Shown here piece by piece: positions 476-53,248 of a stretch of 64,000 nt of DNA (positions are counted from its first letter, which is position 1; each line of letters starts with the position of its first letter). Under the pieces are notes generated by a model, which was given only the letters and a program-made list of their open reading frames with translations, had not been told where the DNA came from and made no database searches. The DNA is from Kiritimatiellia bacterium (lineage in GTDB: Bacteria; Verrucomicrobiota; Kiritimatiellia; RFP12; UBA3636): NCBI GenBank assembly GCA_045589455.1, contig JAZNPC010000088.1, forward strand, positions 35,587 through 99,586, given 5' to 3'. The position numbers and the translations under genes are program-made.

Positions 476-715
476 ATTTCGCACTTATTGCTTTCGCCTA
501 ACACGGAGTACGGAGGACAAGGGAGAATTGTGCCAACAACCATTACAACTCCCCAGAATACTCTCCGTGTCTCCGAGCCTCTTTTTCCTCCGTGTTTCGC
601 CGAAGGCTCAAGCGAGAGCGATTAAATCGTTTCACTCGTTGCTTACGCCTAACACGGACACACATAGTGTGATTTTTACGGAGGACAAGGGAGAATTATG
701 CAAACAATCACCTTG
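476..715. repeat. Family A structured repeat, locus 1 (about 1.5 units; the second unit is interrupted by a ~20-bp insertion)
   Basis: The core ...ctccgtgtctccg...ccgtgtttcgccgaaggctcaagcgagagcgattaaatcgtttcactcgttgcttacgcctaacacgga... recurs at 26.9, 29.6-30.2, 31.6, 32.2 and 51.5 kb. Its ends are inverted: cctccgtgtt / aacacggagtacggagg. Confidence 0.8.
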
Positions 716-2215: not shown

Positions 2216-3262
2216 TCACTTGAGCCTGAAATAGGTGGTATTTTTGCCGTTGCCCTCACGCACAAGCTCCCCCTCGGCAACGAGCTTCCGAAGTGCGCCT
2301 TCTACCGAGCTGATACTGAGGGACGGACAAAGCTCCATGACGTCCTGCTTCTTGAAGCGACCGACCTTATTCATCGTGGCGCGTCTCACCATTTCAAGAG
2401 AGGAAAGCTTGGTTTCCACAAGTGCAAAGCGGTCTTCAAAATCACGGTACGCGGAAAGGATTGTACCAAGCAGATATTTGATGAATGGTACGGTATCCGC
2501 TTCTCCCTCGTGCCAGCGTTGCTGCGACTGCCCCAGGGCATCGTAATACAGATCTTTGTTCTTTGCAATCTTGGCTTCCAAGGAGATATACTTCCCAACG
2601 TAGAATCCGTTTCGGTAAAGGAGGAGCATGGTGAGCAGACGGCTCATTCTGCCGTTGCCATCATTGAACGGATGGATGCAAAGAAAATCGTGTATAAAGG
2701 TAGGAATGGCAATGAGAGGCTCAAGCTCCATATTGCCGATCACACGGTTATATTCGTTACAAATGGCTTCAAGTGCCTCTGGTGTCTCAAAGGGGTCGAG
2801 AGGTGTAAACAGCGTTTCAGTATGTCCGTCGGGATAGGTTGCGCTGATATAATTCTGTACGCTCTTGGTTCTGCCCGCCACGGGATTGTTCATATGGCTG
2901 TAGAGGATCTTGTGAAGATGAAGGATATAGTTCGGTGTCAATGGGATGGCATCAAAGCTTTCGTGAATGATATTCAAAACGTCTCGGTACCCGGCAATCT
3001 CCTGCTCATCGCGGTTTCTCGGTGTGGTCTTCTCACCCATCAGCTGACGAATACGGGTGCTCGTGGTCACGATGCCCTCAATGGCGTTGGACGCTTCGGT
3101 GCTTTGTACCTTTGCAATCTCAACAAGCTTTTCAAGCTCATCAGGGCGTTGCTTCAAATATAATTCTTGTTTTCCGGCTTCCTTGTAAATTGCGGCAATC
3201 AAGCCGAGCAACTCGGAATCCCATTTGTTTTCACTGATTTTCGTGTAATTAAAGGTTCTCAT
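2216..3262 (-). CDS. fic: Fic family protein (AMPylation / Fido domain) with a C-terminal winged-helix domain
   Basis: Canonical HPFNDGNGRMSRLL Fic motif. The start was chosen at the internal ATG because it is preceded by GGAGGTGATAAAATG, a strong Shine-Dalgarno sequence. The ORF-track start at 3301 is probably too far upstream. Confidence 0.85.
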   Translation of the reverse strand: MRTFNYTKISENKWDSELLGLIAAIYKEAGKQELYLKQRPDELEKLVEIAKVQSTEASNAIEGIVTTSTRIRQLMGEKTTPRNRDEQEIAGYRDVLNIIHESFDAIPLTPNYILHLHKILYSHMNNPVAGRTKSVQNYISATYPDGHTETLFTPLDPFETPEALEAICNEYNRVIGNMELEPLIAIPTFIHDFLCIHPFNDGNGRMSRLLTMLLLYRNGFYVGKYISLEAKIAKNKDLYYDALGQSQQRWHEGEADTVPFIKYLLGTILSAYRDFEDRFALVETKLSSLEMVRRATMNKVGRFKKQDVMELCPSLSISSVEGALRKLVAEGELVREGNGKNTTYFRLK

Positions 3263-3279
3263 TTTATCACCTCCAAACA

Positions 3280-3425
3280 ATTCCCTTAAATTATAGCACA
3301 AATCAAGGGGATCGTCAACATCTCAAGGGAACATTCCCTTATTATTTTACTCAAATTAAGGGAATTTATTCATTATTGAGGGAATAATACGATAGTATCA
3401 TATTTTAGCGTTAAGGGGAATTCTC
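3280..3425. promoter_or_regulatory. Array of six or more TTAAGGG(G/A)AT-type motifs in the fic upstream region, including the palindrome gggaacattccc
   Basis: Copies are attcccttaaatt, caaggggat, tcaagggaacattccctta, aattaagggaattt, attgagggaat and gttaaggggaattc. Together with the downstream cluster, about 10 copies lie within 1.3 kb. Confidence 0.45.
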
Positions 3426-3584
3426 TACAAAGGACAATGGGGACAGAACAGACAAACGGCAAGGCTGCCCCTGCCGTCTGTGGTATAAGGTTGTTTATTG
3501 CCGTTCCAGTTCGGTGAAGACCTCAATGGCAATCCGCATCCCAAGCCGACACCGGTCGCTTCATAAGCCTGTTCTCAAGAATAG

Positions 3585-3715
3585 ATTTTTCAAAATGTAC
3601 ACACGCTGGTCCATTCTCGCTCTTACATGGTCTATTACTATTGTGTAAGAGCTCACAAAAACAACAATCGTAAAACTATTTTGCCCGCAAATTAAGTATG
3701 CGGGCAAAAAAATGG
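3585..3715. repeat. 131-bp direct repeat, copy 2; its last 3 nt overlap the CCA end of tRNA-Pro
   Basis: See copy 1. This copy carries the relic 3' end of an ORF, although no gene lies upstream of it. Confidence 0.85.
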
Positions 3716-3789
3716 TCGGAGAGGCGGGATTCGAACCCACGACAGCCAGTTCCCAAAACTGGTGCGCTACCAGACTGCGCTACTCTCCG
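3713..3789 (-). tRNA. tRNA-Pro (anticodon TGG)
   Basis: The reverse complement is CGGAGAGTAGCGCAGTCTGGTAGCGCACCAGTTTTGGGAACTGGCTGTCGTGGGTTCGAATCCCGCCTCTCCGACCA. It has a 7-bp acceptor stem, a TTTGGGA anticodon loop, a GTTCGAATC T-loop and an encoded CCA. Confidence 0.9.
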
Positions 3790-3958: not shown

Positions 3959-4993
3959 TTATAGCAAAATATCCCTTAATTGTGTTTGAAGTTCCTCTAA
4001 AGATGGCAATCCTAATCTATAAGTTGATATTCCTAACGGCTTATCAAAATCTGATAAAGAATATTCTGCAACTATATCATTTCGGGATTTACACAAAAGT
4101 ATTCCTATTGTTTTGCTATCTATCTCTGTTTTTACTTGCCTATCAATGGCTGTCATATAAAAACTTAATTGTCCTAAATCTTTTGGGTGAAATTTCCCTG
4201 TTTTTAATTCTATAACAATATAACGATGTAATACCACATGGTAAAAAAGAAGATCTATTTCAAACTCATCTCCACCAACCTTGAGTCGCCACCCCTTGCC
4301 CACATACGAAAACCCAGCACCAAGCTCTACCATAAACTGAGCAACTCTATCTACAAGCAATGTTCTTAGTCTATTTTCTGTTATGTTTCCGCTTGTAGGA
4401 AGAAAACCTAAATCATATTCTCCCCTTAATGCTTGATTCGCCATATCTAAATCCATAGGAGGCATAACATTTTTAAAATTATTTATTGCTTTACCTTGCT
4501 GTTTTGCTGCACAAAGTCCTATTTGATGCACCAAGACATTTCGAGACCACCCATTCTCTATGGATAATGCCGCGTAAGCTAGTCGATCTCCTCGCGATTT
4601 TAAATTCTCTAATAAGGCTATGTGATGATACCAAGGTAATTGTGCAAGTGGTGCTTGCACAATTTCATTCCGAGTCCAAGTCTCAGCAAAGCTACGCATA
4701 TATTTTAAATTGCGTGTCGACCAGCCACTCATATCAGGGAACACTTTTTTCAAATCGAATGACATTCGCTCTACAACCTTTGTACCCCACCCTTCTAAAT
4801 TCTGTTTCTCAATGATATCATTACCGATATCCCAATACAGCAATGTTAATTCAGAATTAACTAACATGCACGCTTTTATACGAGCAGATTGTATTCGTTT
4901 TTTGATTGAACAAATCCAAATATCGTACTCATCAGTTTTTAAAATTTCTTGAACAGAATTTTTATTAGTTTTTTTCATGCAACTCTCACACAT
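3959..4993 (-). CDS. YhcG / DUF1016-family predicted nuclease (PD-(D/E)xK restriction-endonuclease-like fold)
   Basis: Similar over its length to DUF1016 proteins (...LPWYHHIALL...GFSYVGKGWRLKVGGDEFEIDLLFYH...). A GAGGA Shine-Dalgarno precedes the ATG. Confidence 0.6.
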   Translation of the reverse strand: MCESCMKKTNKNSVQEILKTDEYDIWICSIKKRIQSARIKACMLVNSELTLLYWDIGNDIIEKQNLEGWGTKVVERMSFDLKKVFPDMSGWSTRNLKYMRSFAETWTRNEIVQAPLAQLPWYHHIALLENLKSRGDRLAYAALSIENGWSRNVLVHQIGLCAAKQQGKAINNFKNVMPPMDLDMANQALRGEYDLGFLPTSGNITENRLRTLLVDRVAQFMVELGAGFSYVGKGWRLKVGGDEFEIDLLFYHVVLHRYIVIELKTGKFHPKDLGQLSFYMTAIDRQVKTEIDSKTIGILLCKSRNDIVAEYSLSDFDKPLGISTYRLGLPSLEELQTQLRDILL

Positions 4994-23458: not shown

Positions 23459-23582
23459 TCTTTCTTGGGCAGCGGGTTATAATCCCGCTTTTTTTGTTTT
23501 TAGGCCACAAATCATATGTGCTAAACTCTTAAGACGAATGCTAATAAACCACAATCATAGAATTTGTTGATTGTTGTATTGT

Positions 23583-23878
23583 TTCCTCGCTCCTCGTCTC
23601 AAAAGTCTTGGTGGGTCGTACACATTAGCGCTTGGAAGTTGCATTATTGCTTCGTCAGATTTCGCAATAATAAAGGCAACAACAAGCGGTAATGTGCGCA
23701 TTCGCGCCCCAACACCACACCCATCACACAAGCCCAGCGCCCTCCGCGTCCTTCCTGACCTCCGTAGCCTTGGAGTAGGAGGTTGCGTCCCATCGGCGTC
23801 ACGCTAGCTCGGCGTTCTCTGCGTCTCTGCGTGAGGCGTGAGCCTGCCAATTATTTGTTGGCTGTTGTTTGTTGGCTG
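23583..23878. repeat. Family B structured repeat, copy 2
   Basis: Shares ...gtacacattagcgcttggaagttgcattattgcttcg.cagatttcgcaataat.aaggcaacaacaagcggtaatgtgcgcattcgcgcccc... with 49793-50045, and continues to the tandem ctctgcgt units. Confidence 0.8.
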
Positions 23879-23890
23879 TTGTATCCTTAA

Positions 23891-26885: not shown

Positions 26886-27050
26886 AATAATCCCAGCACC
26901 CCTCCGTGTCTCCGAGCCTCCAGAAAACCACACTACGTGTGCTCCGTGTTTCGCCGAAGGCTAGATGCTCAAGGAGGCAAAGGTTAGCACCTTGCCACCT
27001 TTCGCCCCAGCAACACCGGGCGACAGAGCCACCCTCAAATGGGATAAAGC
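26886..27050. repeat. Family A partial unit fused to a family D hairpin element
   Basis: ...ccctccgtgtctccgagcctccagaaaaccacactacgtgtgctccgtgtttcgccgaaggct followed by ...ggcaaaggttagcaccttgccacct.tcgccccagcaacaccgggcgacagagccaccctcaaatgggataaagc. Confidence 0.8.
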
Positions 27051-27555
27051 CTTCTGGAGATTCCTCTAATTCGTCATCAGGATACTCCACTTTAAATGCA
27101 AATACATCACCATTCGCATCCTTAGCAAATGCATATTGACCTTTAGCTTATGCATCAACTCTGTCACATAACTCTACCCTTGCATTTTTATAAATGCGGA
27201 TATAACTCATTAGGGCTGGTGAAGAGCATATTTGATATCATATTGCACGCCAAATTCAATTTAAATCTGAGGAAAAACACCCCAACACCGACACATTAAA
27301 ATAAACCCTCTTATTCAGTTGTTCGTAATTGATTGCTGTATTGTTTTTCATCAATAATTAATTTATAATATCTATCAAACAAGTGAACCTACCATCAAAA
27401 ATTATTAAAATAGACCACCTAGTAATTTTATGAAAATAATAACTGCAATGGACTTCTTTAAAGAGTGCATGACTTCTGTTGATGTTAGTAATGCAGTAAA
27501 AACTGGTCCTATTGCAAAAACAGTCTCATTATCATAAAGGACATTTTGTTATACC

Positions 27556-29481: not shown

Positions 29482-29549
29482 TTATACATAACACTATCAT
29501 CTTAGACTATGGTGCTTTTATAAGAGTGTCATATAAAAATTTTAAGGAT

Positions 29550-29612
29550 TCCTTGACAACATAAATGCAACACCAAACACACAATGGCGTTGCAATTACT
29601 TTGTCTTTTAAC
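29550..29612. repeat. Family E repeat, copy 1 (hairpin element)
   Basis: gacaacataaatgcaacaccaaac...gttgcaattactttgtctttta.acc matches 32447-32507. It contains the inverted arms aaatgcaac / gttgcaatt. Confidence 0.7.
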
Positions 29613-29649
29613 CCTTCCCATTCTCCTAATCTCCTAATCTCCCAATTAG

Positions 29650-30236
29650 CGCCACAGGCTTGAGCGGGAGCGTTTAAATCCCTTTCGTTCATTGCTTACG
29701 CTTAACACGGAGTACGGAGGACAAAGGAGAATTGTATTAGCAATCTTTCCAGCACCCCAGAACCCTCCCCGTGTCTCCGTTCTCCAGAAAACCACACTAC
29801 GTGTGCTCCGCGTTTCGCCGAAGGCCTGAGCGGGAGCGTTTAAATCGTTTCACTCATTGCTTTCGCTCAACACGGAGCACGGAGGACAAAGGAGAATTGT
29901 GCTAATCGTTGCACTCGTTGCCTACGCCTAGGAAAGGAGGGGAAGTGCAAGCAACAATAATCCTAGAACACTCTCCGTGTCTCCGTTCTCTTAATCCTCC
30001 GTGTTTCGCCGAAGGCTCAAGCGGGAGCGTTTAAATCACTTTCGTTCATTGCTTACGCTCAACACGGAGTACGGAGGACAAAGGAGAGTTGTGCTAGCAA
30101 CCATTATAATACCCCCAACAAACTCTCCGTGCCTCCGTTCTCTTTTATCTTCGCGTTTCGCCGAAGGCTCAAGCGAGAGCGATTAAATCATTTCACTTGT
30201 TGCTTACGCTTAACACGGAGGCTGGGGAGAACGGAG
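29650..30236. repeat. Family A structured repeat, tandem array of 4 degenerate units (152-191 bp period)
   Basis: Core starts (cgtgtttcgccgaagg) fall at about 29645 (truncated), 29812, 30003 and 30155. Each unit ends ...aacacggag.acggaggacaaaggagaattgtgcta.caa. Confidence 0.85.
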
Positions 30237-30291
30237 ACGCGGAGAGGTTTGGGAAGATATTGGAGAAAGGGGCTACAGCCCTTTGCGTGCT

Positions 30292-30344
30292 GACAATATG
30301 ACAGTTTGACAATATGACAGTTTGACAATATGACAGTTTGACAG
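30292..30344. repeat. Tandem repeat (gacaatatgacagttt) x3.3
   Basis: Perfect 16-bp units. A related 9-bp repeat (gacagtatg) lies at 30466-30500, and aactgtcaaactttccaa occurs twice at 30372-30425. Confidence 0.9.
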
Positions 30345-30504
30345 AGCAGATGAGGGTGGCTTTGCCGCCCTAGACCCCCAACTGTCAAACTTTCCAACTC
30401 GCCCACTCGCAAACTGTCAAACTTTCCAAGCCTCAACACCTAAACAGTTCCATTTTTTTATAGTTTGACAGTATGATAGTATGACAGTATGACAGTTTGA
30501 GAGA

Positions 30505-30578
30505 GAAGATGAAGGTGGCTCTGCCACCTCTCGCCCCAGCAACACCGGGCGACAAAGCCACCCTCAAATGGGATAAAG
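30505..30578. repeat. Family D hairpin element, directly 3' of the PEP-CTERM gene
   Basis: ggtggctctgccacctctcgccccagcaacaccgggcgacaaagccaccctcaaatgggataaagc. On the minus-strand transcript it folds into a 12-bp stem (with G-U pairs) and a ~20-nt loop. Confidence 0.75.
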
Positions 30579-30583
30579 CTTAC

Positions 30584-31237
30584 TTACTTTCTGCGTTTTA
30601 TCAATAATGCTGCACCAGCAAGAGCAAGCAACGCGGAACTTGGTTCAGGAACAACACCAACGGTTATTGGATCGCCATCAAGATTTATTGCTGAATTAAG
30701 CATAGTAACACCGTCTGTTGTGAATTGCATATGAAGCCACCCGTAAACATCTCTATACCAGAAAGGTTCATCAACACTATTACTAAAACCTGCCTCGTAA
30801 ACAAATCCCAAATAGAAATCATCACCAACGTTACCTGTTATGCTGTATCCTGGATATGCACTCCCATCTGCAGTAGTAAGATATTCAAGGAAATATTCAT
30901 CTTGATTTTTAGTCGTTGCCGCTGAAACAATATCTCCCTCATTAAGTTGGACGAAATTACAAGCATGCGCAAGCAGTTGTTCACTGGAAGCAGAAATTGT
31001 TCGCTTATTCCCATATTTTGGAATTTCTACTTCGATATACGCCGCTGGAGCGACACAAATTGAATAATACCCCGCATAGTTATATAAATCATCAAACCTA
31101 GTCTTTGGTAAAATTTGATAGTTATCAATTAAATAGTGGTGATCAATTATAGTCATATAATCCCATAATACTGTTGAAGCAAAAGTATACGAGCAAATTA
31201 GTGACAACAAAATTATTATTGAGCTTTTAATTTTCAT
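30584..31237 (-). CDS. PEP-CTERM sorting-domain protein (secreted/cell-surface, exosortase substrate)
   Basis: N-terminal signal peptide, and a C-terminus ...VVPEPSSALLALAGAALLIKRRK made up of a PEP motif, a hydrophobic helix and a basic cluster. Confidence 0.8.
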   Translation of the reverse strand: MKIKSSIIILLSLICSYTFASTVLWDYMTIIDHHYLIDNYQILPKTRFDDLYNYAGYYSICVAPAAYIEVEIPKYGNKRTISASSEQLLAHACNFVQLNEGDIVSAATTKNQDEYFLEYLTTADGSAYPGYSITGNVGDDFYLGFVYEAGFSNSVDEPFWYRDVYGWLHMQFTTDGVTMLNSAINLDGDPITVGVVPEPSSALLALAGAALLIKRRK

Positions 31238-31565
31238 TTACGTATCTCACTAAAACCAGCTTCCGCAACCAAATCTGTTAAGTCTTGCATTAAATCATTA
31301 ATTGTTATTGAAAAACACGTTCTAATCTATGAACAGCAACGTTTTCTTCATATCATAATCCTTTTTGATACTTCTCAATTTAAGATTAACAAAATATGTT
31401 ATTCTATTCAACTATTATTGTTGGTGTGAAACTGTAATTTGCAAAAGTAAATGCACCTCTTTTGGTGCATTTAGTCACACAATGGTGTATTTAGTTTTGC
31501 AATCTACAAAAAGTCACTTTTCCACACCCTTTCTCCCTCTAGCAGCAAATCTTTTTTGTTCGACG

Positions 31566-31685
31566 CTTCCGCCTAACACGGAGACGCAGAGGCGCGGAGA
31601 ATTGTGCAAGCAATCATTACAACTACCCCAGAACCTCTCCGTGTCTCCTTACCTCTTTATCCTCCGTGTTTCGCCGAAGGCAAGA
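31566..31685. repeat. Family A structured repeat, single unit
   Basis: gcctaacacggagacgcagaggcgcggagaattgtgcaagcaatcattacaactaccccagaacctctccgtgtctcc...cctccgtgtttcgccgaagg. Confidence 0.8.
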
Positions 31686-31810
31686 GCACTAGCGACCATC
31701 AGTTCTCTGCGTTCCTTTTTCGCACTTTTGAAGCGTGCTGGTGCACGCAAAGCGACTGGAAGTCGCTTCTCCATACTTTTCTAGCCCACGAATGTGATGC
31801 ACTATAATAA

Positions 31811-31852
31811 ATGAAGAATGAAGAATGAAAAATGAAGAATGAAAAATGAAGA
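31811..31852. repeat. Heptanucleotide microsatellite (ATGAAGA/ATGAAAA) x6
   Basis: atgaaga atgaaga atgaaaa atgaaga atgaaaa atgaaga. Confidence 0.9.
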
Positions 31853-31884
31853 GTTAAGGTAGAGTTGAGTGGTTTTTCTCCATT

Positions 31885-32055
31885 CTCGCGTCTAATTGTC
31901 TTTTAGTCTCTTGTCCTTGTCTCATGTCTCATGTCTCGCGTCTCATGTCCCATGTCCAAATGGGCGTGTCAACGCCTGCGGGATGCGTGTCAACGCATTG
32001 GATGGTCTCGCGTCTAATTGTCTAATCGTCCGTTCGCCGTCTAACGTCTAATTGT
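31885..32055. repeat. Family C repeat, copy 1; includes the heptamer run (GTCTCAT-like) x7 at 31910-31957 and two gcgtgtcaacgc motifs
   Basis: gtcttttagtctcttgtccttgtctcatgtctcatgtctcgcgtctcatgtcccatgtccaaatgggcgtgtcaacgcctgcggg...tctcgcgtctaattgtctaatcg. Copy 2 is the reverse complement at 49625-49745. Confidence 0.8.
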
Positions 32056-32194
32056 CTATCGGTTGTCTCACGTCTAACGTCGTTTAACCGTCTCGCGTCT
32101 AACGTCTAACCTCGCGTCTAGCCGCCACACAATCCTCTGCGCCTCTGCGTCTCTGCGGGAAATAACAATATCCGTATAAATATAACATGTTCAA

Positions 32195-32345
32195 GCCTCC
32201 TAATCTCCAAAACTCCGGAAAGACACACTACGTGTGCTCCCAGAAGCGAAAGCAACCTTTCAATAGAGATTAAGTCGTTGGGTTTAAAGTTACTTTCGTT
32301 GCTTGAAGATTTGGAGATTAGGAGACACGGAGAGTACTGGTGGTA
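32195..32345. repeat. Divergent family A-like element bounded by 13-bp inverted repeats (cctaatctccaaa / tttggagattagg)
   Basis: Contains cacactacgtgtgctcc and gagacacggagagt, both shared with family A. The inverted repeats sit at 32203-32215 and 32300-32312. Confidence 0.6.
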
Positions 32346-32446
32346 TGGAGAAGCGATATCCTGTCGCTTTGCGTGCACTGGAACGCCTATCCCTGCGACG
32401 TGTACACGATTTTTTTGTCTAGTGGGTTATATTTGAATGGTCACTG

Positions 32447-32507
32447 GACAAAGTAAATGCAACACCAAACTTTAGAGGTAGTTGCATTTAGTTTGTCTTT
32501 TCACCTT
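32447..32507. repeat. Family E repeat, copy 2
   Basis: gacaaagtaaatgcaacaccaaac...agttgcatttagtttgtcttttcacc, in the same orientation as copy 1. The two E copies bracket the 2.9-kb repeat region. Confidence 0.7.
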
Positions 32508-42586: not shown

Positions 42587-43248
42587 CCCCTCTCTTTCAG
42601 AATAATCGCAGCTTTTTTTATTTTTTGCATCAAGTTCTGATTTCCTTGTTTAGCAAGTTCACGATAGACATCGCGTAACAAGGAAAGCACCTCTTCCGTT
42701 TGCTGTGCTCGGTATGATTTGCGAGCTTGGTACATTCGTTCCCGGATGCCTCCTTTTTCTGTGAAACTTTTTTCCAGTGACTTGATTTGACGGTCAAGCA
42801 AATAATTGGTCTGGTGAATCAGGGAAATCATCGTATTGCAGAAAAGCTCAGGATTATCAGCAGAAAAATAAGACTTATAGGTCTCATAAGTCCTATTCTT
42901 TTGTCTTGCAAGCTGGCGGATTTGCAAAGCCCGTGGGTCATCTTTTTCCCACAAAGGCAAATTGTGCGTCCGCAAATAATCGCGGTAGTCTTCCAATAAT
43001 TCTTCAAGACTGGCTCTGGCAACACCAACAAGCTTAATTTCTGTTCCGCTACTGATACCTGATGCCATGCTTCCTTCGATTATATTTTGCTTACCGCTTC
43101 TTGCCGCCTGTATCATTTGATCAATTGTCCGATCACCTTTTCTAAGAAAATTTTGACAAAAACTCTGCGTCGCATCAAAAATAATGACACTATTTTGATA
43201 CGATTCAAGTTCCTGATAATTTCCGTGTGGCAAGACAATTTCTGCCAT
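42583..43248 (-). CDS. Four-helix-bundle (23S rRNA intervening-sequence protein family) domain protein with a C-terminal extension
   Basis: ...QMIQAARSGKQNIIEGSMASG...VGVARASLEELLEDY... fits the Q..RSA.SI..NIAEG...IARGS..EL signature. Confidence 0.45.
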   Translation of the reverse strand: MAEIVLPHGNYQELESYQNSVIIFDATQSFCQNFLRKGDRTIDQMIQAARSGKQNIIEGSMASGISSGTEIKLVGVARASLEELLEDYRDYLRTHNLPLWEKDDPRALQIRQLARQKNRTYETYKSYFSADNPELFCNTMISLIHQTNYLLDRQIKSLEKSFTEKGGIRERMYQARKSYRAQQTEEVLSLLRDVYRELAKQGNQNLMQKIKKAAIILKERG

Positions 43249-43289: not shown

Positions 43290-43500
43290 TTCATTTCCCT
43301 CACTCATTTTCAGAGGTCCCTTCCTTTCAGAAAATTCGCATCTTCAGAAAGATAAGACTTATAGGTCTCATAAGTCCTATTCTTTTGTCTTGCAAGCTGG
43401 CGGATTTGCAAAGCCCGTGGGTCTTCTTTTTCCCACAAAGGCAAATTGTGCGTCCGCAAATAATCACGGTAGTCTTCCAATAATTCTTCTAGACAAAGAG
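43290..43500 (-). pseudogene. Internally deleted duplicate of the preceding four-helix-bundle gene
   Basis: 43345-43495 is ~97% identical to 42867-43030, and 43290-43340 resembles 42575-42620. It corresponds to ORF-track ORF 43310..43525. Confidence 0.7.
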
Positions 43501-49339: not shown

Positions 49340-49620
49340 AAAATTTCGCGTGCGCGTCAATATATTTTCACGCGCGCGCGAGATTTTTTGTGGTAGCGAG
49401 TATGGTGGGGATTGGCGTGCTGGGCACGCGAGTGCGCTCTATTTTGGCGCGAGTGCGCTCTCGCGCAGGAACAGGATTGGCAGGATTTTGCAGGATTGCT
49501 TGGGTGTGTGCATAGCGCACTACACTAGCGCTTGACGTTGGACATGGTCTTGCTCTCGTTGTCGCAAGGCCAACTTACAAGCGCTAGTGTGGGGGCAACC
49601 CATGTTACTTGCGTGATGCA
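49340..49620. other. GC-rich (~57% against a 40% background) repeat-laden non-coding island upstream of gyrB
   Basis: Contains (CG)n-type palindromes cgcgtgcgcg / cacgcgcgcgcg, the direct repeat gcgagtgcgctct x2, gcaggatt x2, and a long inverted repeat gcgcactacactagcgcttg...caagcgctagtgtggggg that resembles the family B core. Confidence 0.6.
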
Positions 49621-49624
49621 CCTG

Positions 49625-49745
49625 ACGTAAAAGGGACGATTAGACGTTAGACTCCGCGACCTGCAGGCGTTGACACGCCCCTTTGGACATGAGACATGAG
49701 ACGTGGGACACGAGACAAGGTCGTGAGACCAAAAGACATTTAGAC
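49625..49745. repeat. Family C repeat, copy 2 (inverted relative to copy 1 at 31885-32055)
   Basis: Its reverse complement reads gtcttttggtctcacgaccttgtctcgtgtcccacgtctcatgtctcatgtccaaaggggcgtgtcaacgcctgcaggtcgcggagtctaacgtctaatcg. Confidence 0.8.
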
Positions 49746-49792
49746 GTTAAGAACCAATTGTTGGTTGTTGGATCGTTTCCCATCACGCTTCC

Positions 49793-50045
49793 TTGCTCAA
49801 TAGCCTTGGTGGGTCGTACACATTAGCGCTTGGCAGTTGCATTATTGCTTCGCCAGATTTCGCAATAATTAAGGCAACAACAAGCGGTAATGTGCGCATT
49901 CGCGCCCCAACACCATACCCATCACACCAGCTCCGTGCCCTCCGCGTCCACTGCGTCTCTGCGTCCCTACGGCGTCACGTGCACCACGCTCGCTCTGCGT
50001 CTCTGCGTCTCTGCGTGGGGGTGAGCCGCCAGTTGTCTGTTGATT
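49793..50045. repeat. Family B structured repeat, copy 3
   Basis: Roughly 90% identical to copy 2 over the first ~150 bp, and ends in (ctctgcgt) x3. Confidence 0.8.
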
Positions 50046-50111
50046 GTTGATTGTTGATTTTATTTTGGCATTCTTATATAATCTTGCCAAATCTATTGAA
50101 AAGGGACAAAT

Positions 50112-51433: not shown

Positions 51434-51493
51434 CGCACCTAAGATGTATAAAATACCTCTTAGGTGCATGAAGCGAAGCACAGCTTCATTTTC
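51434..51493 (+). terminator. Two consecutive hairpins after the M16 peptidase gene; the second is followed by a T-run (rho-independent terminator)
   Basis: gcacctaag...cttaggtgc (9-bp stem) and then atgaagc-gaagcaca-gcttcat followed by tttct. A near-identical hairpin (tgaagcgaagcatagcttcatttt) sits at 52140-52165 next to the hydE stop. Confidence 0.55.
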
Positions 51494-51957
51494 TCCGTGC
51501 CTCCGTTCTCAGAAAAATCACACTACGTGTGCTCCGTGTTTCGCCGAAGGCTCAAGCGTCAGCGACAATCAGTGTGCGTGCTAACAAGCCATTTTATAAG
51601 ACTTATAAGTCCTATGAGTCTTATTAAAATATTGCGTAGCAATGCTTCATATTGCGTGGCACCTCTCCGTGTCTCCGTTTTCTTTATTCTCCGCGTTTCG
51701 CCGAAGGCTAAAGCGTCAGCGTTTCAATCGTTGCACTCATTGCTTTCGCTTAACACGGAGTACGGAGGACAAAGGAGAATTGTACTAGCAATTATTAACA
51801 ATAACCCCAGCATCCCTCCGCGTCTCCGTTCTCTGAAAAATCACACTACGTGTGCTCCGTGTTTCGCCGAAGGCTTGGAGTGCTCAAGGAGGCAAAGGGT
51901 TGCCACCTTGCCACCTCTCGCCCCAGCAACACCGGGCGGCAGAGCCACCCTCAAATT
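51492..51957. repeat. Family A structured repeats (about 2.5 units with a ~110-bp unrelated insert) fused to a family D hairpin element
   Basis: ctccgtgcctccgttctcagaaaaatcacactacgtgtgctccgtgtttcgccgaaggctcaagcg... occurs twice, followed by ...ggcaaagggttgccaccttgccacctctcgccccagcaacaccgggcggcagagccaccctcaaat. Confidence 0.8.
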
Positions 51958-52171
51958 AACTTTTTAACTGACAAACTATCAAACTATAAAACTGTAAAAC
52001 TATATAACTAAACAAGAATTAAATTAGTTTGCAAGTTGGCGAGTATGCGAGTATGCGAGTTTGATAGTTGGATTTTGAGGCGGCAGAGCCACCTTCTGGG
52101 AGGATGGAGCGCTCATAAATGAACATGAGAACATGAAGCAGCACATTCGTGCTATGAAGCGAAGCATAGCT

Positions 52172-53248
52172 TCATTTTGCGTGTGGAGAATCGCCTAATT
52201 CATTTAAGCGGAGAGTTTCACCGATGCTTTTAACTGAAGCTTCAAGGGCAGCCATTGTTTCTTCAGCATTTTCATCTAGATTTGGCTTATTTGCGTATAA
52301 TTGATAACCAGCACGATAACCAACTGCTGTTGCATTTGGCATAATTACATTGGCTCCTGCAAGTAAGCCACGCTCACGCCCATCTGGAGCAAGAGCTTGA
52401 AGTGCTGTGGTAGATGCTATATTTACATCGTGTAAATATAAACGCGTGACAGCAATCATCTTTAGTCCTAAAAGTAGCTGTTGCTCCATATATTCCGATG
52501 TTACGGGAATATTTTCACCTAAAGGTGTATCTGGATGAGGTATATATGGTCCCATTCCTATCATATCCGCATCCACTTCTGCAAAAAATTCAATATCATG
52601 AGCGAGATCAAGTAGCGACTGCTCTGGCAATCCAATCATAACACCTGTACCAAGCTGATAACCAAGCTTTTTTAATGTGTGTAAGCACTCTACGCGACGC
52701 TCAAAAGAATGCCCTAGAGGATGAAGCTTTTCATAAAGCTTTGGGTTACTAGATTCTATCCGAAGGAGGTATCTATGCGCCCCCGCATCACGCCATTGTT
52801 TATAGACACTCTCCTCCTGCTCTCCAAGCGATAATGTCACGCCTAAACCATTACCCCAACGAGACTTAATCTCAGCAAGTACATCTGCTATGAAGGCAGA
52901 GTTTGCGGAACTTTCTAGCTCACCACCTTGAAGAACAAGCGACCCATAACCGGCAGAAAAAATAAACCCCGCTGTAGCTAATATCTCATCCTTTGTAAGG
53001 CTAAATCGTTCAATATTTTTGTTACCTGAACGAATTCCACAATAGTAGCAATTCTTTTTACAGATATTGCTCCACTCAATTAAGCCTCGAACACTAACCC
53101 GTCGCCCAATATAGCGCTCTTTGGCGCTATAAGCAGCCTTAAACAGCTTTTCCATCTCCTTATTAGTGGATATACTGAGTAGCTCAACTAACTCGTCACA
53201 AGTGAGATTACGAGGTTTTTCAAGGGCTTTATTGAGTAATTCAACCAT
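52172..53248 (-). CDS. hydE: [FeFe]-hydrogenase maturase HydE (biotin-synthase-like radical SAM)
   Basis: CKKNCYYCGIR cluster motif and a ~350-aa length. The order of conserved blocks matches HydE. Confidence 0.75.
   Translation of the reverse strand: MVELLNKALEKPRNLTCDELVELLSISTNKEMEKLFKAAYSAKERYIGRRVSVRGLIEWSNICKKNCYYCGIRSGNKNIERFSLTKDEILATAGFIFSAGYGSLVLQGGELESSANSAFIADVLAEIKSRWGNGLGVTLSLGEQEESVYKQWRDAGAHRYLLRIESSNPKLYEKLHPLGHSFERRVECLHTLKKLGYQLGTGVMIGLPEQSLLDLAHDIEFFAEVDADMIGMGPYIPHPDTPLGENIPVTSEYMEQQLLLGLKMIAVTRLYLHDVNIASTTALQALAPDGRERGLLAGANVIMPNATAVGYRAGYQLYANKPNLDENAEETMAALEASVKSIGETLRLNELGDSPHAK

Follow-up and report, generated by a model that had tools for sequence, protein, structure and literature searches.

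Family A, an apparently undescribed set of hairpin-forming DNA repeats in uncultured Kiritimatiellae

A 64,000-nt stretch of a Kiritimatiellia genome (contig JAZNPC010000088.1, positions 35,587 to 99,586; hereafter the window) contains, close to position 29,650, a short tandem array of a palindromic repeat of which further pieces are scattered over the same stretch. A preliminary description made from the sequence named this repeat family A and left its nature between a mobile miniature inverted-repeat transposable element (MITE), a regulatory RNA and a recombination hotspot. The locus therefore raises the question of what kind of element family A is and how it came to be dispersed. As shown below, family A is a real and apparently undescribed set of short hairpin-forming non-coding DNA repeats of a small group of uncultured animal-gut bacteria. 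On balance, it is probably a lineage-specific, interspersed mosaic DNA repeat that resembles repetitive extragenic palindromes (REPs), their inverted doublets (REPINs) and bacterial interspersed mosaic elements (BIMEs), or else MITEs, and not an RNA gene.

Copies and anatomy of the repeat

A search allowing three mismatches retrieved nine copies of the 20-nt head CTCCGYGTTTCGCCGAAGGC in the window, all on the + strand and each with at most one mismatch (starts at 588, 26942, 29806, 29997, 30149, 31662, 51532, 51689 and 51855), compared to no match in 100 dinucleotide shuffles of the window. The mini-hairpin H (CACACTAYGTGTG) is found six times in the family context, with 0.11 occurrences expected by chance. 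Next, a covariance model (CM) of the ~72-nt hairpin unit, built from 21 copies, was run over the window. It identified six full copies (580-670, 29631-29723, 29798-29888, 29989-30080, 30141-30231 and 51681-51771) and five partial copies (437-519, 26934-27031, 31654-31765, 51524-51603 and 51847-51947), and nothing credible beyond these. Sequence inspection and a repeat search yielding interlocking repeat families place all six loci of the preliminary description at or near the positions it gave. The internally complementary ends and the GCCGAAGGC hairpin it mentioned are both present, and its picture of a modular, hairpin-forming family of the BOX, BIME or MITE type holds, with whole, half and interrupted units all being seen. 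It had also assigned the repeat to no described family, in agreement with the searches made here. At gathering score, Rfam reports only seven tRNAs in the window and nothing for family A, while at E <= 10 the region 29500-30600 gives only sub-threshold microRNA-precursor hairpins (e.g. 36 bits, where the cut-off is 100). Searching the literature for the motif yielded nothing either.

The anatomy of the unit was read from about 95 heads placed side by side, taken from the window and from related genomes. The head holds GCCGAAGGC, with a CCGAAGG mini-hairpin. After the head come three almost random bases (nnn), AGCG, two almost random bases (nn), a second AGCG and, in most cases, (A/T)nnAAATC. 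About half of the copies possess a 3' half, reading TTTCACTnnTTGCTTWCGCYYAACACGGAG, that pairs back to the head, producing a hairpin of ~72 nt (the A unit), while in the remaining copies the head runs into one of several unrelated tails. On its 5' side, the head is preceded by a degenerate octamer block, CTCTCCGTGTCTCCGTTCTC, and then by either a 7-nt linker or the ~20-nt H mini-hairpin, AGAAAAYCACACTACGTGTGC; H also occurs inverted at the opposite end of the A unit, both in the window (659-676) and in L069, one of the related loci from other genomes, which are cited by L numbers. The A hairpin is flanked by inverted blocks of TCTCCGTG-type octamers, resulting in nested palindromes of 120-150 nt, which are completed on the 3' side by inverted octamers, TACGGAGGACAAGGGAGA, or by the perfect GAGAACGGAGACRCGGAGAG. 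Terminal inverted repeats are present as well (CTCCGTGTT...AACACGGAG) and are lengthened in some copies to ~40 nt via H and the octamer arms. Some units carry internal partial duplications, as in the second spacer of the array and in L087.

The four-unit tandem array could be confirmed, with start-to-start spacings of 165, 192 and 151 nt and a first unit with a degenerate head (Table 1). Four units indeed lie where they had been placed, but the array ends slightly further on, at ~30262, with an inverted arm that completes a 147-nt palindrome. With DNA parameters, this palindrome (30112-30258) folds at -31.3 kcal/mol (z -4.4). Tandem Repeats Finder (TRF) did not call the array, because its units differ by indels and unequal spacing.

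Table 1. Coordinates of the tandem array and of the dispersed family-A loci in the window
Feature	Position	Strand	Content	Basis
Array left boundary	29622..29646	+	octamer TCTCCTAA three times, a variant of the TCTCCGTG octamers flanking other units	TRF, sequence
A unit 1	29646..29712	+	degenerate head ttagcgccacaggc, intact 3' half ending AACACGGAG	CM 29631-29723, 59.8 bits
B spacer 1	29713..29805	+	TACGGAGGACAAAGGAGA arm, AT-rich linker, M1 octamers 29765-29784, H CACACTACGTGTG 29793-29805	sequence, repeat search D5/D11
A unit 2	29806..29877	+	head 29806-29825, nnn, AGCGnnAGCG, closing 3' half	CM 104 bits; RNA fold -29.8 kcal/mol, z -4.05
B spacer 2	29878..29996	+	enlarged by partial duplication (~29905-29948) of A-tail/B-arm sequence	191-nt unit; same kind in L087
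A unit 3	29997..30069	+	head 29997-30016	CM 100 bits; RNA fold
B spacer 3	30070..30148	+		sequence, repeat search
A unit 4	30149..30220	+	head 30149-30168, one mismatch	CM 96.5 bits
Inverted octamer arm GGCTGGGGAGAACGGAGACGCGGAGAGG..., array right boundary	30221..30262	+	pairs with 30112-30148, ~147-nt palindrome around unit 4	DNA fold
Locus 1	484..712	+	A 3' half 484-508, B spacer 509-587, full A 588-658, inverted H 659-676, B left arm 677-712	CM, head search
Locus 2	26886..26961	+	3' part of B, M1 octamers, H 26929-26941, head 26942-26961; abuts other module 26962-27055	repeat search D5/D11/D12
Locus 3	31561..31681	+	A-tail fragment, B spacer, head 31662-31681, then different tail AGCACTAGCGACCATCAG...	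sequence, head search
Locus 4, divergent	32196..32335	+	H 32224-32236 between arms with TCTCCTAA-type octamers on both sides, CCTCCTAATCTCC...GGAGATTAGGAGACACGGAGAG	repeat search D11
Locus 5	51492..51874	+	M1-H-head 51492-51551, unit with unrelated tail 51552-51688, full A 51689-51759, B+H+head 51760-51874	CM, head search

Near locus 2, on the - strand at 27055-27165, an open stretch of 36 codons (AKGQYAFAKDANGDVFAFKVEYPDDELEESPEGFIP) continues, uninterrupted by any stop, into the repeat. No Pfam family matches this stretch, which may be a gene cut short by insertion of the repeat, as the preliminary description proposed. Another module with hairpins of its own, GCTCAAGGAGGCAAAGGGTTGCCACC...TCGCCCCAGCAACACCGGGCGRCAGAGCCACCCTC, is located at 26962-27055, 30500-30584 and 51875-51971. 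At two loci it directly abuts family-A heads, and its sequence is near-identical at the orthologous locus of a related metagenome-assembled genome (MAG).

Conservation, folding and turnover

Outside the head, variation among copies is sharply position-specific (chi-square 644 on 50 df), with 3.4% non-consensus bases in predicted paired columns versus 19.7% in unpaired ones, and the near-random nnn and nn directly adjoin invariant blocks. Mean identity between copies is 83.1% within genomes and 82.7% between genomes, and the nearest neighbour of a copy is often found in another genome. This equal divergence, combined with the uneven variation, indicates that the copies are held to, or regenerated from, one shared consensus, unlike a neutral burst of copies, which would decay evenly and cluster by genome. 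The shared consensus spans species whose genes differ by 15-25%. It fits selfish propagation through recognition by a conserved enzyme and a function for the host alike.

The strong folding potential noted in the preliminary description was recovered. As RNA, single A units reach z-scores of -2.6 to -4 on both strands and the whole array reaches -9.3, and 96% of cells are paired in an alignment of 48 full copies taken from five genomes. Compensatory double changes were found at none of the 17 pairs, neither in the 21 copies nor in the 48, and covariation among the 48 copies is no better than in shuffled controls. One-sided changes kept the pairing in 27 cases and broke it in 30, the terminal stem of diverged copies is lost and uncompensated, and a T/C polymorphism, frequent in the head, leaves the + strand with a C-A mismatch. 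At one position, a G-U pair that is valid on the + strand only is common. No sigma-70-like promoter is predicted in the array, and the reverse complement of H resembles a weak terminator. The absent covariation, the unrepaired stems, the folding of both strands, the lack of a promoter and the near-random orientation described in the next section argue against a strand-specific RNA element. The functional structured RNA proposed initially is therefore not upheld; by the test which the preliminary description had set itself, the lack of structure-preserving covariation points to a DNA-level repeat rather than an RNA element. Its fallback of plain satellite DNA proved too simple, as the copies are dispersed and their conservation is position-specific.

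Other readings of the unit were also discarded. A known RNA family was rejected on the Rfam result at gathering score, and inspection of the 48 aligned copies revealed no consistent partner with which the free nnn and nn could pair among the other variable positions; nnn is linked only partly to the tail subtype. A coding reading in the frame CCG TGT TTC GCC GAA GGC, with the free bases at codon boundaries, was rejected for the window copies on account of stops between units, either orientation and frequent truncation.

Turnover of the repeat is visible between related species. In the gap between an M16 peptidase gene and a radical-SAM gene, a related MAG (L098) has one M1-H-head joined to a further module; the window shares this arrangement but has two extra units (323 bp) exactly between two heads. 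At another orthologous gap, copies are present in a related MAG (L008) and none in the window. The in-register two-unit difference is the sole informative case from the comparison of the window with a related MAG. Between the window and the CALDQE MAG, no clean empty and filled sites with target duplications were found, since intergenic regions turn over too fast. Within loci, heads are almost always in direct orientation with a spacing of 137-213 nt. Among 83 heads, the type of the upstream module (H present or absent; octamer variant) shows no dependence on the type of downstream tail (p = 0.29 and 0.50), so the head behaves as a junction for module exchange. Such exchange could proceed through homologous crossover within the invariant 20-mer or through insertion beside it.

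Between window positions 50000 and 54000, identity to L098 ranges from 71% to 99% per 100 nt inside the same genes, which suggests recombination between these species. A separate MITE-like palindrome of ~55-76 nt, TGCAAAAGTAAATGCA...TGCATTTAGTTTTGCA, with a GGACAAAGTAAATGCAAC variant, is present at 31440-31501, 32446-32498 and ~29555-29612 of the window and at 285-360 of L069. In L069, a family-A head is interrupted by this ~76-nt element, on both sides of which 14 nt of the head (CGTTTCGCCGAAGG) are duplicated. Insertion of one small element into another thus takes place in this lineage.

Genomic setting, hosts and other repeats

The claim that the copies are always intergenic holds for the window, as none of them falls in any of the 42 credible open reading frames (ORFs) that cover 79% of it; for six independent loci, the probability of this by chance is ~9e-5. 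ORFs that do overlap copies are spurious and made of the repeats themselves. All loci are located in gaps of 760-1365 bp between divergent or convergent genes, i.e. at strand switches, and these gaps are crowded with 7-8-nt tandem repeats and other small palindromes. Relative to the flanking genes, the orientation of heads is near random (same/opposite 27/43 for the upstream gene and 37/35 for the downstream gene). Based on GC skew, heads are on the C-rich strand at 22 loci versus 12, a difference that is suggestive only and confounded by gene orientation. A replication-strand bias like that of the insertion sequences (ISs) IS200/IS605 was rejected on these weak and confounded counts.

A Pfam scan identified ordinary chromosomal genes in the window, including gyrB, gyrA, dxs, a holB-like gene, PEP-CTERM and type II secretion genes. 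No exact-protein record was found for the 217-aa protein flanking the repeat, and near homologues of the gene adjoining the array are on record only on contigs of ~0.9 kb. Family-A repeats break short-read assemblies, as such contigs illustrate, and should be masked when annotating MAGs of this kind.

Homologues were searched with one genome per species, and the figures count the matches listed and are hence lower bounds. Among these matches, homologues are found on at least dozens of contigs of four MAGs labelled Kiritimatiellae/Verrucomicrobia: "Kiritimatiellae bacterium" RGIG4692 (roe deer rectum), RGIG9845 (yak rectum) and RGIG990 (cattle rectum), and "uncultured Verrucomicrobia bacterium" SRR6425821_bin.29. 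The window is syntenic with contigs of the latter at 72-87% identity and thus comes from a related species. A cyanobacterial source, which the heptamer and octamer repeats had first suggested by their likeness to STRR/NsiR1, was rejected since homologous loci and synteny both indicate Kiritimatiellae/Verrucomicrobia MAGs. No family-A match was obtained in plasmid, phage, IMG/VR and JGI metagenome collections.

One piece of the family was found inside a gene. In a MAG with 60% GC (L026, 7462-7530), a family-A piece lies in frame in the interdomain linker of carA, consisting of the M1 13-mer at the right spacing and 23-24 nt of exact head. The linker reads SSLRASASLKSPCFAEGQGTDLP and uses exactly the frame CCG TGT TTC GCC GAA GGC, while the closest CarA homologue (88% identical) has just SSLSSLP at this site. 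Among 120 close homologues, the linker varies from 7 to 47 residues. The carA loci examined also include L102, and four longer linkers read as DNA (L026, L105, L106 and L107) are all built from short repeats, with a perfect 75-nt palindrome of CACAGAGN/CTCTGTGN octamers in L107 and a 132-nt palindrome in L106. These repeats indicate that octamer-armed palindromes insert or expand within genes too, at sites where they are tolerated by a flexible linker. A more distant likeness comes from MAGs of Saprospiraceae/Lewinellaceae (L006, L013, L028, L047, L049, L061, L066 and L093), which carry a REPIN-like inverted doublet of two copies ~100 nt apart. The doublet has the same 19-mer, TCCGCGTTTCGCCGAAGGC, within a longer palindrome, TTCGCCGAAGGCGAA, flanked by ATCCGCG repeats; beyond the 19-mer, its similarity to family A is slight.

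Several other repeats of the window were recorded. A 33-nt palindrome at 51435-51467, GCACCTAAGA...TCTTAGGTGC, lies between two copies of ATGAAGC. Its empty sites are seen at a paralogous position (~52133-52180) and at the orthologous one in L098, and the palindrome recurs in the same ATGAAGC context in two other MAGs (L056, L059, L064 and L086), which suggests a tiny site-specific insertion element. Dense tandem arrays of 7-8 nt and 16 nt occupy 31800-32160, 49390-50060, 23560-23890 and 30291-30500. Their motifs are GTCTCAT, CGTCTAA, CTCTGCGT, TGACAGTA and AATGAAG, many with a GTCTC core and arranged around short palindromes such as GCGTGTCAACGC, and related MAGs contain the same composite blocks. 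A 154-nt repeat (94% identical; 23598-23751 and 49796-49949) contains a long palindrome, ACACTAGCGCTTG...CAAGCGGTAATGTG, with related sequence at 49510-49590 and within a 386-nt unit of L021. Furthermore, a 175-nt direct repeat (86%; 1932-2106 and 3541-3715) brackets a Fic-domain gene (2216-3301) in a region that adjoins tRNA-Pro (3713-3789) and a gene for a YhcG-type PD-(D/E)XK nuclease (3959-4993); the bracketed region may be a small integrated element. Finally, a 155-nt duplication (96%; 42856-43010 and 43340-43494) covers part of an ORF that lies just downstream of gyrA and has a weak, sub-threshold Pfam match to the 23S rRNA intervening-sequence protein family.

Origin of the family and comparison with known systems

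If family A is a mobile mosaic repeat, as we are inclined to think, an enzyme provided in trans would generate new copies by recognising the conserved head, and the form recognised would most plausibly be a hairpin in single-stranded DNA (ssDNA). Local tandem arrays such as 29646-30262 would then grow by unequal recombination or slippage between units, and the invariant head would serve as the crossover or insertion point at which modules are shuffled. The CCGAAGG motif is of the GCGAAGC class of exceptionally stable DNA mini-hairpins and occurs in ssiA of RSF1010, where it is recognised by the RepB' primase (PMC13037366), making recognition of the head in ssDNA plausible. Several points weigh against this mobile-repeat account. 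Each of its mechanistic steps is drawn by analogy. As ssDNA, the one A unit tested folds no better than shuffles (z -0.5). No target-site duplication was found either at the boundaries of solo palindromic units or at the unit gain relative to L098. No transposase, RAYT-like (REP-associated tyrosine transposase) or multi-copy ORF was found in the window and ~0.5 Mb of related loci, which are a fraction of each genome and make for weak tests. Within this same coverage, tblastn with IS200/IS608 TnpA queries gave no match, and neither an ORF with an HUH...Y motif nor a transposase-like ORF between inverted arms was seen; the 42 window ORFs contain no transposase or recombinase domain in Pfam. Of the MITE proposal, the terminal inverted repeats thus stand, while neither target-site duplications nor a parent transposase were found in the sequence covered. 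In addition, the conservation pattern could instead mean host function, and an orthologous copy is 92-98% identical when the flanking genes vary from 71% to 99% per 100 nt.

These last points bear on the view that family A serves its host at the level of DNA or mRNA, as protein-binding or structure-forming sites selected between transcription units, with spread as a by-product. Possible roles are gyrase- or IHF-type sites (as proposed for BIMEs), transcription insulators or terminators, and stabilisers of mRNA 3' ends. Invariant blocks beside the free nnn and nn, divergence that is equal within and between species, the position of every window locus at a strand-switch gap, the terminator-like reverse complement of H and an orthologous copy as conserved as the best-conserved neighbouring coding DNA are all in line with it. 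However, copy content differs between orthologous gaps of related species, many copies are truncated or chimeric, orientation and distance relative to genes are inconsistent, and there is no known binding protein. As proof of selection, the high identity seen in the orthologous copy is also weakened by the patchy identity of its flanks, as the recombination suggested by the latter could explain it without selection. Overall, we regard a host-serving element as rather unlikely. An array of structured small-RNA genes or cis-regulatory RNAs, in which each ~72-nt hairpin is transcribed and acts as RNA, appears very improbable. In its favour, single units (z about -4) and the array fold strongly, stems are more conserved than loops and the + strand-only G-U pair is common; the 48 copies, however, show no compensatory change and no covariation beyond that of shuffles, stems lost in diverged copies are not repaired, the C-A mismatch falls on the + strand, and both strands fold without a promoter-like site, orientation rule or Rfam match. 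Moreover, copies in which the head alone is joined to an unrelated tail are as frequent as full hairpins. Nor is it likely, to only a slightly lesser degree, that the family is plain minisatellite or recombination debris, produced by local slippage and duplication alone, with neither a dispersal mechanism nor a function. The tandem layout with units of 151-192 nt, the internal partial duplications and the 7-8-nt tandem repeats throughout the same gaps would suit such an origin. It is at odds with the presence of six separate loci in 64 kb and, over five genomes, of dozens of contexts that are unrelated, with non-uniform, position-specific conservation, with one consensus across species whose genes are only ~75-87% identical, and with the copy inside carA of an unrelated 60% GC genome.

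A broader and more speculative idea, which we consider unlikely as a whole, is that family A is one of an unrecognised bacterial 'foldback-like' class. Such elements would have palindrome arms of 8-nt tandem repeats around an ssDNA mini-hairpin head, be mobilised by an enzyme of neither the RAYT nor the IS200 type, and be able to enter coding linkers in frame, as in carA; the Saprospiraceae/Lewinellaceae doublet that shares TCCGCGTTTCGCCGAAGGC would be kin. If this were true, a recognition motif would be conserved across phyla.

Compared to known systems, some candidates can be set aside. A CRISPR array was rejected, as the A and B parts of each unit are both family repeats found at other loci and leave no unique spacers. 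An integron attC site or Xer dif-type site was rejected as well, since GAAGGC and AGCG around nnn are not inverted copies and no ORFs lie between units. Family A belongs to the general kind of interspersed palindromic mosaic repeats, as a new family.

Like REPs and REPINs, it is a short, extragenic, imperfect palindrome in many copies, with a hairpin that could be read in ssDNA. In Pseudomonas fluorescens SBW25, REPIN clusters are ordered tandem arrays, the largest with four units and >700 bp, in one orientation per replichore (PMC3116915). Similarly, family A has four units in ~620 bp, and all nine window heads are on one strand. In contrast to REPs, it has no GTAG-type 5' motif, and its unit is a single 72-nt hairpin in octamer arms instead of two 20-40-nt REPs that form an inverted doublet with fixed spacing. 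In the sequence covered, no RAYT was found, and its host belongs to the Kiritimatiellae/Verrucomicrobia, not to the Proteobacteria that harbour REPs and BIMEs. With neither an inverted-doublet unit nor a GTAG-type motif, and with no RAYT found, membership of the REP/REPIN family is not established. The likeness to BIMEs lies in the clustered mosaic of palindromic units and other conserved short motifs; the hallmark of BIMEs is binding of IHF, gyrase or Pol I.

With MITEs (Correia/NEMIS, Nezha) and pneumococcal BOX elements, family A shares a length of 70-170 nt, inverted ends, an intergenic position and modularity, comparable to boxA-boxB-boxC. It differs from them in that neither a target-site duplication nor a parent IS with the same ends was found among the sequences searched. 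Moreover, its modules are not delimited by fixed termini but recombine freely at an invariant 20-mer within the element. Another parallel is offered by Nostoc, in which small dispersed repeats (SDRs) are embedded in heptamer tandem repeats (STRRs) and mini-transposons, the structure of some SDRs being reportedly supported by compensatory changes (Elhai et al., 2008, Genome Research, a reference listed in PMC3116915). The two systems have in common very small hairpins nested in repeats and 7-8-nt tandem arrays (e.g. the ~20-nt H, or the 33-nt palindrome always found between two ATGAAGC copies), as well as complex nested mosaics confined to a single lineage and without an associated transposase. 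Their sequences and host phyla are different, and family A lacks compensatory changes. Rickettsia palindromic elements show that a palindromic repeat can lie in frame in a protein-coding gene, to which the CarA interdomain linker formed in GC-rich relatives by a family-A piece and other octamer-armed palindromes is similar. Unlike in that system, only one family-A copy was seen in a gene and all window copies are intergenic.

The origin, spread and persistence of very small non-coding repeats (REPs, BIMEs, SDRs) in compact bacterial genomes are only partly understood, and the best-known case relies on one enzyme family, the RAYTs. Family A adds a second example, unrelated to the first, from uncultured gut bacteria of the Planctomycetes-Verrucomicrobia-Chlamydiae (PVC) group. 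It is instructive for its invariant 20-nt head with a known ultra-stable DNA mini-hairpin, the free reassortment of modules at this head and a consensus that stays constant across 15-25% gene divergence. The discovery of a protein that mobilises or binds it would reveal whether REP-like systems have more than one evolutionary origin.

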